Of a stretch of 64,000 nt of DNA, positions 1,861 through 2,128 are shown in pieces. Within the stretch, counting starts at the first letter, position 1, and each line of letters starts with the position of its first letter. This DNA comes from Escherichia coli (GTDB lineage: Bacteria; Pseudomonadota; Gammaproteobacteria; Enterobacterales; Enterobacteriaceae): assembly GCF_003334255.1 (NCBI RefSeq), contig NZ_QOWU01000012.1. One strand, 5' to 3'. A model generated the notes under the pieces. That model saw only the letters and a list, made by a program, of their open reading frames with translations, did no database searches and was not told where the DNA came from. The position numbers were made by a program, and so were the translations under genes.

Positions 1861-2128
1861 AATACTCTCTCCTGAATTTATGATTCACGGAAGTAAGCTC
1901 TCTATAACTATAATAGCTAAGAATAAGCCTGGTGAAATTATTCCGTGAAATCTGCTCGCGCGCAGGGTTATATCACGCAGGTGATAATGACTTCCTGTTA
2001 TATCGCTGATAATAATTTTATATCTTGAGAGTGTTAATAACAGGTAAATAGTCTTAATTATCAACCAGGAATCATCTTAGAGCGGATGATTTGCCAAACT
2101 GCAAATCATCCGTAGAGAAGGGAAATGG

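Follow-up and report, generated by a model that had tools for sequence, protein, structure and literature searches.

A perfect palindrome downstream of yciT forms an RNA hairpin next to the mapped 3′ end of the yciT transcript

The window, the whole 64,000-nucleotide stretch of Escherichia coli DNA analysed here, contains the gene arrangement pyrF-yciH / osmB-yciT-yciZ-pdeR. In the list of open reading frames, yciT, encoding a DeoR-type regulator of 249 amino acids, occupies 2129-2878 on the minus strand, with its stop codon at 2131-2129, and osmB occupies 1642-1860, its minus-strand ATG side facing the yciT spacer. The K-12 RefSeq annotation confirms the identities of the genes and leaves the 268-bp osmB-yciT spacer free of annotated features. 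In MG1655, yciT is annotated at 1,343,597-1,344,346 (-), which fixes the offset between the two frames (NC_000913.3 coordinate = window position + 1,341,468); the 100 nt around the palindrome described below are identical in the window and in MG1655.

Near its yciT end, the spacer holds a perfect inverted repeat. The arms are 12 bp long and 100% complementary, CGGATGATTTGC at 2083-2094 and GCAAATCATCCG at 2101-2112, and enclose a loop of 6 nt that reads CAAACT on the plus strand. The preliminary description had put a repeat at this place, and its location stands, with the arms and loop corrected from 11 bp and 7 nt. It also placed the repeat 17 bp beyond the yciT stop, which agrees with the 16 nt (2113-2128) that separate the stop codon from the stem. 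In the yciT-sense transcript, the 5′ arm is 5′-CGGAUGAUUUGC-3′ (2101-2112), the loop is 5′-AGUUUG-3′ (2095-2100), with a sequence that differs among species and among E. coli strains, and the 3′ arm is 5′-GCAAAUCAUCCG-3′ (2083-2094); both arms are supported by the inverted repeat and the RNA fold, and the 3′ arm also by the pair counts given below. Half of the base pairs (6/12) are G-C, as befits the stable, G+C-containing stem-loop of an intrinsic terminator. The tail is of a different kind: over the 8 nt past the stem, the minus strand reads CTCTAAGA, with 2 T (CUCUAAGA in the yciT sense, 2/8 U), and the plus strand TAGAGAAG, with 1 T, and a consensus terminator scan made no call at the palindrome. 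The earlier observation that the repeat has no T-tract is therefore correct.

The inverted repeat is real and non-random. Perfect inverted repeats with arms of at least 12 bp and a loop of 3-10 nt number 2 in the 64-kb window, against 0.02 expected from 100 dinucleotide shuffles of the window. Folded as RNA, the minus strand reaches -19.2 kcal/mol (z -5.5; z -6.2 over the 45 nt that lead up to the mapped 3′ end) and the plus strand -22.4 kcal/mol (z -7.7), and none of 200 shuffles folds equally well. The spacer is found in single copy in 5,423 of 5,426 complete E. coli genomes, and the palindrome occupies a median of 1 place per genome (5,421-5,423 genomes). A search of Rfam 15 gave no covariance-model match overlapping the site, even at E values up to 10.

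A published map of RNA 3′ ends settles on which strand the palindrome is read. A Term-seq 3′ end at 1,343,547 (-), classed as ‘primary’ for yciT, appears in Supplementary file 1 of Adams et al. (2021, eLife 10:e62438, PMC7815308); the sequence given for it divides into ...CGGATGATTTGCAGTTTGGCAAATCATCCGCTCT and AAGATGATTC. The end corresponds to position 2079 of the window, minus strand, 4 nt past the stem, so that the steady-state RNA finishes ...CAUCCG-CUCU-3′. It is represented by an average of 107,065 reads in LB at OD 0.4 and 37,489 reads in M63 at OD 0.4, and is absent from the listing for LB at OD 2.0 (PMC7815308). It follows that the palindrome is part of the yciT-strand transcript and that a stable RNA ends directly after it, with a precise steady-state 3′ end immediately behind a stable stem-loop. 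Term-seq, which had been proposed as a check, was thus an apt one. The yciT 3′ end is already part of a public dataset, though it was never discussed individually, and our literature search found no paper naming both osmB and Term-seq; a preprint on 3′ stem-loops contains no entry for yciT.

We compared the position across species using 80 yciT loci, of which 79 were usable, picked by protein alone from 100,044 species-representative genomes, a choice that introduces no bias as regards the hairpin. In 76 of the 79 Enterobacteriaceae loci, the yciT stop is followed within 20 nt by the start of a single hairpin of -9 kcal/mol or better. Over the 79 loci, the median folding energy is -14.7 kcal/mol and the median z against shuffles is -3.3, with z of -2 or lower in 67. 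The stems belong to at least ten unrelated sequence types. The type of E. coli, GATGATTTGC, is found in Escherichia, Citrobacter and Salmonella; the others include GCGCCCGA in Enterobacter and Lelliottia, TAGCCCGC in Kosakonia, ACGCCCG in Leclercia, ACCCGATGCG in Kluyvera, GTCCGGTACG in Trabulsiella, GGGCCAGC in Atlantibacter, GCCTGCACCCG in Pseudenterobacter and GATACCTCTGC in Pluralibacter, and there are further types beyond these nine. Conservation, another check that had been suggested, thus gives a divided answer: the palindrome itself is kept in Escherichia, Citrobacter and Salmonella and is replaced by unrelated hairpins in the other genera. A structure that holds its place as its sequence turns over is the hallmark of an RNA element and not of a protein operator, and the pattern indicates selection on structure rather than on sequence. 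At least 5 T in the 8 nt after the stem occur in only 6 of the 79 loci: one Leclercia, three Cedecea or Cedecea-like, Pseudenterobacter and one Citrobacter. In every genus the gene end has the same order, in which the yciT stop is followed by the hairpin, an RcsB box, a second conserved block and promoter-like -35 and -10 elements.

Among close relatives, the changes within the stem are also of the kind seen in paired RNA. In a gapless alignment of the 22 sequences that have the E. coli stem, 91.3% of cells hold standard pairs; shifting the 3′ partner by 1-3 columns lowers this share to 27-49%. RNAalifold gives the identical helix. Changes on both sides of a pair occur at 3 pairs (10 cells; 0 of 500 shuffles as high): the pair at the stem base is G-C in 8 sequences and A-U in 9, a pair near the loop passes from C-G to U-A via U-G intermediates, and the third is the outermost pair. 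The non-Watson-Crick cells comprise 17 G.U on the yciT strand and 2 A.C, the latter being wobble pairs on the opposite strand. Once shared ancestry is allowed for, roughly 7-11 independent events stand against 2, an asymmetry that suggests pairing in the yciT-sense RNA but is not decisive alone. Stem-only pair and wobble counts were used here as the strand test in place of the minimum free energy of the whole segment, sense versus antisense, which favoured the antisense strand and was dropped as being confounded by flank composition.

Of 5,422 E. coli records, 4,464 show at least 99% identity across the 70 nt surrounding the site, which in a match of full length leaves no difference. Three variants were sampled: the first has a changed loop and a U.G pair at the stem base, the second loses only the loop-closing pair, and the third has an altered RcsB box and an unchanged hairpin. 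In one of the 5,426 genomes, that of strain FMU073332 (NZ_CP017844.1), an IS1 element has replaced osmB together with most of the spacer; what is retained starts at window position 2088, within one arm of the hairpin, and both osmB and an intact yciT 3′ hairpin are missing. In Escherichia, and there only, the minus strand carries the heptamer GATGATT twice, once in the hairpin's 5′ arm (2103-2109) and once in the RcsB box (2068-2074), which would allow an alternative 7-bp pairing of the 3′ arm; the duplication is absent in Citrobacter and Salmonella. An anti-terminator formed by the 3′ arm and the GAUGAUU of the RcsB box was considered and rejected, as this pairing reaches -6.7 kcal/mol with a z of -0.4 and is not kept outside Escherichia.

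Beyond the hairpin, the untranslated yciT-osmB spacer (1861-2078, minus strand) also holds the regulatory region of osmB. The first element is an RcsB box, TAAGATGATTCCTG (2066-2079, minus strand), which is separate from the hairpin, lies 3 nt from it, and has as its first base the mapped yciT RNA 3′ end. It is the ortholog of the Salmonella osmB box TAAGACTTTTCTGA, which was validated by EMSA, sits 215 nt away from the ATG and spans -73 to -59 relative to the start of transcription (Huesa et al. 2021, NAR 49:2357, PMC7913699). The genuine protein site of this intergenic region is thus the RcsB box and not the palindrome. Box and hairpin adjoin each other in the same intergenic region, and the box too is pseudo-palindromic, but the box is a separate 14-mer conserved as sequence, with a match to the consensus TN(G/A)GAN4TC(T/C)NA (PMC7913699) 3′ of the hairpin in 78 of the 79 loci (gap of 2-41 nt in 77 of them), whereas the hairpin evolves as a structure. 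We read 2083-2112 by eye against the same consensus and found no match inside it. The last position of the box is G in E. coli K-12 and the consensus A in strain A30 (NZ_CP092500.1). The osmotic-shock activator motif of a reporter preprint is RcsB-like and unrelated to the hairpin.

The second conserved element is the block AATTAAGACTATTTACC (2058-2042, minus strand), which is nearly invariant across genera and always lies 21 nt past the start of the RcsB box; in the 79-locus set its TTAAGA is invariant at that distance. Its left half fits an RcsB half-site, and the block abuts a promoter-like -35 TTAACA (2037-2032) and -10 TATTAT (2014-2009), which together match in 10 of 12 positions. The predicted start at about 2002 is 142 nt before the osmB ATG, an offset equal to that of the Salmonella osmB start. 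The promoter and the block are probably osmBp1 with an activator site. A third RcsB-box-like sequence, TAAGAATAAGCCTG (plus strand, 1919-1932), overlaps a minus-strand promoter-like TTCACC/TATAGT (region 1907-1936); this promoter, with a predicted start at about 1900, is probably osmBp2.

Starting from a non-random hairpin, an in vivo RNA end 4 nt past its stem and the conservation of both its position and its structure, we consider it likely that the palindrome acts as an RNA hairpin that defines and protects the 3′ end of the yciT mRNA, after termination by Rho or an endonucleolytic cut followed by trimming. The palindrome would form the closing stretch of the yciT mRNA and fold into a 12-bp stem-loop 16 nt past the stop. 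The primary yciT transcript would have ended further downstream, in the untranslated yciT-osmB spacer, most likely through Rho that loads and terminates there, with endonucleolytic cleavage as the alternative. The 3′-5′ exonucleases PNPase and RNase II would then trim the RNA back until the hairpin blocks them, leaving a stable transcript that ends ...CAUCCG-CUCU-3′. If the primary cut were endonucleolytic, the part played by the hairpin as a 3′ barrier would be unchanged.

The yciT hairpin is probably an ordinary mRNA 3′-end stem-loop of a known class. Dar and Sorek (2018, NAR 46:6797, PMC6061677) described Rho-dependent E. coli transcripts with precise 3′ ends after stem-loops that lack a U-tract. 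Such ends are left when PNPase and RNase II trim back longer primary transcripts; the DNA beyond them has a mild bias of C over G, and they could become intrinsic terminators just by gaining U's (PMC6061677). yciT resembles this class in having a stable stem-loop right after the gene, with a steady-state end a few nucleotides past the stem; in the absence of both a U-rich tail and an upstream A-tract; in a slight excess of C over G downstream and a bicyclomycin-sensitive region close by; and in a hairpin that is not a REP element, as for 76% of the class. It differs in that, for yciT, Rho dependence and exonuclease trimming are inferred, and in that the ‘rut’ zone behind its hairpin is rich in A and T and serves at the same time as osmB promoter and RcsB-box region. 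REP (repetitive extragenic palindromic) elements that stabilise mRNA 3′ ends share with the yciT palindrome an extragenic position, RNA folding and, probably, the ability to block exonucleases, and the CGGATG of its arm resembles the REP core; the yciT palindrome, however, is single-copy, is not annotated as a repeat in NC_000913.3 and matches the consensus only over a hexamer.

The case for Rho draws on a second list of Adams et al. (2021). Their Supplementary file 2 contains a Rho-termination region with its best coordinate at 1,343,365 (-) (PMC7815308). This peak, at window position 1897, is 182 nt downstream of the mapped yciT 3′ end on the same strand, inside the 500-nt association criterion of that study (PMC7815308). 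Reads upstream and downstream are 101 and 25 without bicyclomycin and 259 and 233 with it (PMC7815308), and the resulting score of 3.63 (p 9.7e-9) rests on 800-nt windows, the downstream one of which includes osmB. The signal may be read-through from yciT. Because the downstream window includes osmB, bicyclomycin-induced osmB transcription could mimic such read-through, and because the peak coincides with the predicted osmB promoter start at about 1900, the signal may partly reflect osmB induction. Base composition gives a faint rut-like bias: the 120 nt after the hairpin contain 22 C and 17 G in E. coli, and C exceeds G downstream in 69 of the 79 loci (mean 24.9 versus 20.2). The spacer is AT-rich (C 18%, G 14%), a weak rut signature that counts against Rho. 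Rho dependence of the yciT end is most likely, then, rather than firm.

The main rival is direct but weak intrinsic termination, in which the hairpin would be a non-canonical terminator releasing the RNA at CUCU, perhaps aided by NusA or NusG, with Rho only as a back-up. We regard this as unlikely, though it has real attractions. In stem length, loop size and folding energy the hairpin is indistinguishable from intrinsic terminators, its stem is as stable as those of genuine ones, it lies directly past the stop, and the tail CUCU is pyrimidine-rich. Orthologs in Leclercia (TTTTTCTG), Cedecea (TTTTCCTC and TTTTTCTC) and Pseudenterobacter (TCTTTTGA) have T-runs, and mixed or transitional cases are explicitly allowed by Dar and Sorek (PMC6061677); these occasional T-runs in other genera fit a switching between Rho-dependent and intrinsic ends. 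The E. coli hairpin itself departs from an intrinsic terminator in its tail. An intrinsic terminator has a U-rich tract of 7-8 nt with the RNA end inside it, and E. coli RNA polymerase requires a U-tract for hairpin-driven release. Here just 2 of the 8 nt past the stem are U, the terminator scan is silent, the mapped end lies 4 nt past the stem instead of within such a tract, and a bicyclomycin-sensitive region follows downstream. The preliminary description was right that, with its U-tract missing, this is no classical intrinsic terminator.

A further possibility links the hairpin to osmB. As the mature yciT 3′ end abuts the RcsB box, yciT transcription that continues beyond the hairpin until Rho acts could influence osmBp1 through interference or occlusion, or the hairpin-ended 3′ fragment could act in trans. 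We hold this to be rather improbable; if true, read-through would couple the transcription of yciT itself to osmB, which rises in a yciT deletion. That rise (log2FC 1.83, padj 0.011) was seen with no YciT ChIP-exo site nearby (Gao et al. 2021, NAR 49:9696, PMC8464067), and may reflect either an indirect regulatory route or polarity or read-through across the hairpin caused by the deletion construct.

It is improbable that the hairpin marks the 3′ end of a stable small RNA, or of a decay fragment, that derives from yciT and acts as a regulator in its own right. The 107,065 Term-seq reads are many for a modestly expressed regulator (yciT baseMean 358), about half the count of the fabI terminator listed beside it, but Term-seq counts vary with ligation efficiency and are not measures of abundance. 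The sequence of the stem is unusually conserved over three genera, and a weak promoter-like site lies inside yciT (2277-2248); still, the putative 3′ RNA has no known 5′ end, the hairpin has no U-tail for Hfq, Rfam gave no match, and our literature search found no paper tying yciT to a small RNA.

The suggestion of the preliminary description that the palindrome is a protein-binding site fares worse. It would then be a DNA operator for a dimeric transcription factor, such as YciT itself or a regulator of osmB. The palindrome is perfect, its half-sites GATGATTTGC and GCAAATCATC and their 6-bp spacing are kept in Escherichia, Citrobacter and Salmonella, a box of validated type for RcsB is its neighbour, and osmB responds to the loss of yciT. 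Against this, other genera have unrelated hairpins at the position while the RcsB box and the TTAAGA block stay conserved around them, the one-sided changes are G.U wobbles that break the symmetry of the DNA and keep the pairing of the RNA, and an RNA 3′ end maps directly past the hairpin. The ChIP-exo binding-site file of Gao et al. includes 49 YciT sites (PMC8464067), and lists neither a site for osmB nor one whose nearest gene is yciT. Nor is the half-site enriched in the window: allowing one mismatch, it occurs at 4 places besides the two arms (6 in total, against 2.05 expected; 3 of 100 shuffles reach 6). An operator is largely refuted already, and we rate it very improbable. A roadblock of RNA polymerase by RcsB was rejected as the cause of the 3′ end, since the end is the first base of the RcsB box and a roadblocked polymerase stops well upstream of the edge of the protein.

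Read as a barrier hairpin at the end of the yciT mRNA, the palindrome has little import beyond annotation: what it adds is a mapped 3′ end and a mechanistic class for the little-studied regulator yciT. Here a perfect palindrome makes a ‘protein site’ tempting, and that reading is very probably wrong. The locus is also a clean example of a gene-end hairpin whose position persists across Enterobacteriaceae as its sequence and U-tract change, and it illustrates the proposed evolutionary switch between Rho-dependent and intrinsic ends. Since the hairpin is only 3 nt from the RcsB box of osmB, constructs of yciT or osmB that remove one can damage the other.

Two other hairpins of the window are of note. 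The other long perfect inverted repeat, at 46694-46728, has 16-bp arms, AATATGCCTGATGGTG and CACCATCAGGCATATT, and a 3-nt loop, and lies between convergent open reading frames at 45120-46688 (plus strand, with a TyrR-like C-terminus) and 46732-47238 (minus strand); it looks like a shared hairpin ending both genes, without a clear T-run. A canonical intrinsic terminator follows yciH at 1522-1547 on the plus strand, with an 11-bp stem AAAGCCACGGA/TCCGTGGCTTT and then CGAATATTTT. It stops plus-strand transcription that comes from pyrF-yciH and heads for the osmB-yciT spacer and offers, in the same neighbourhood, a classical example to contrast with the yciT hairpin.
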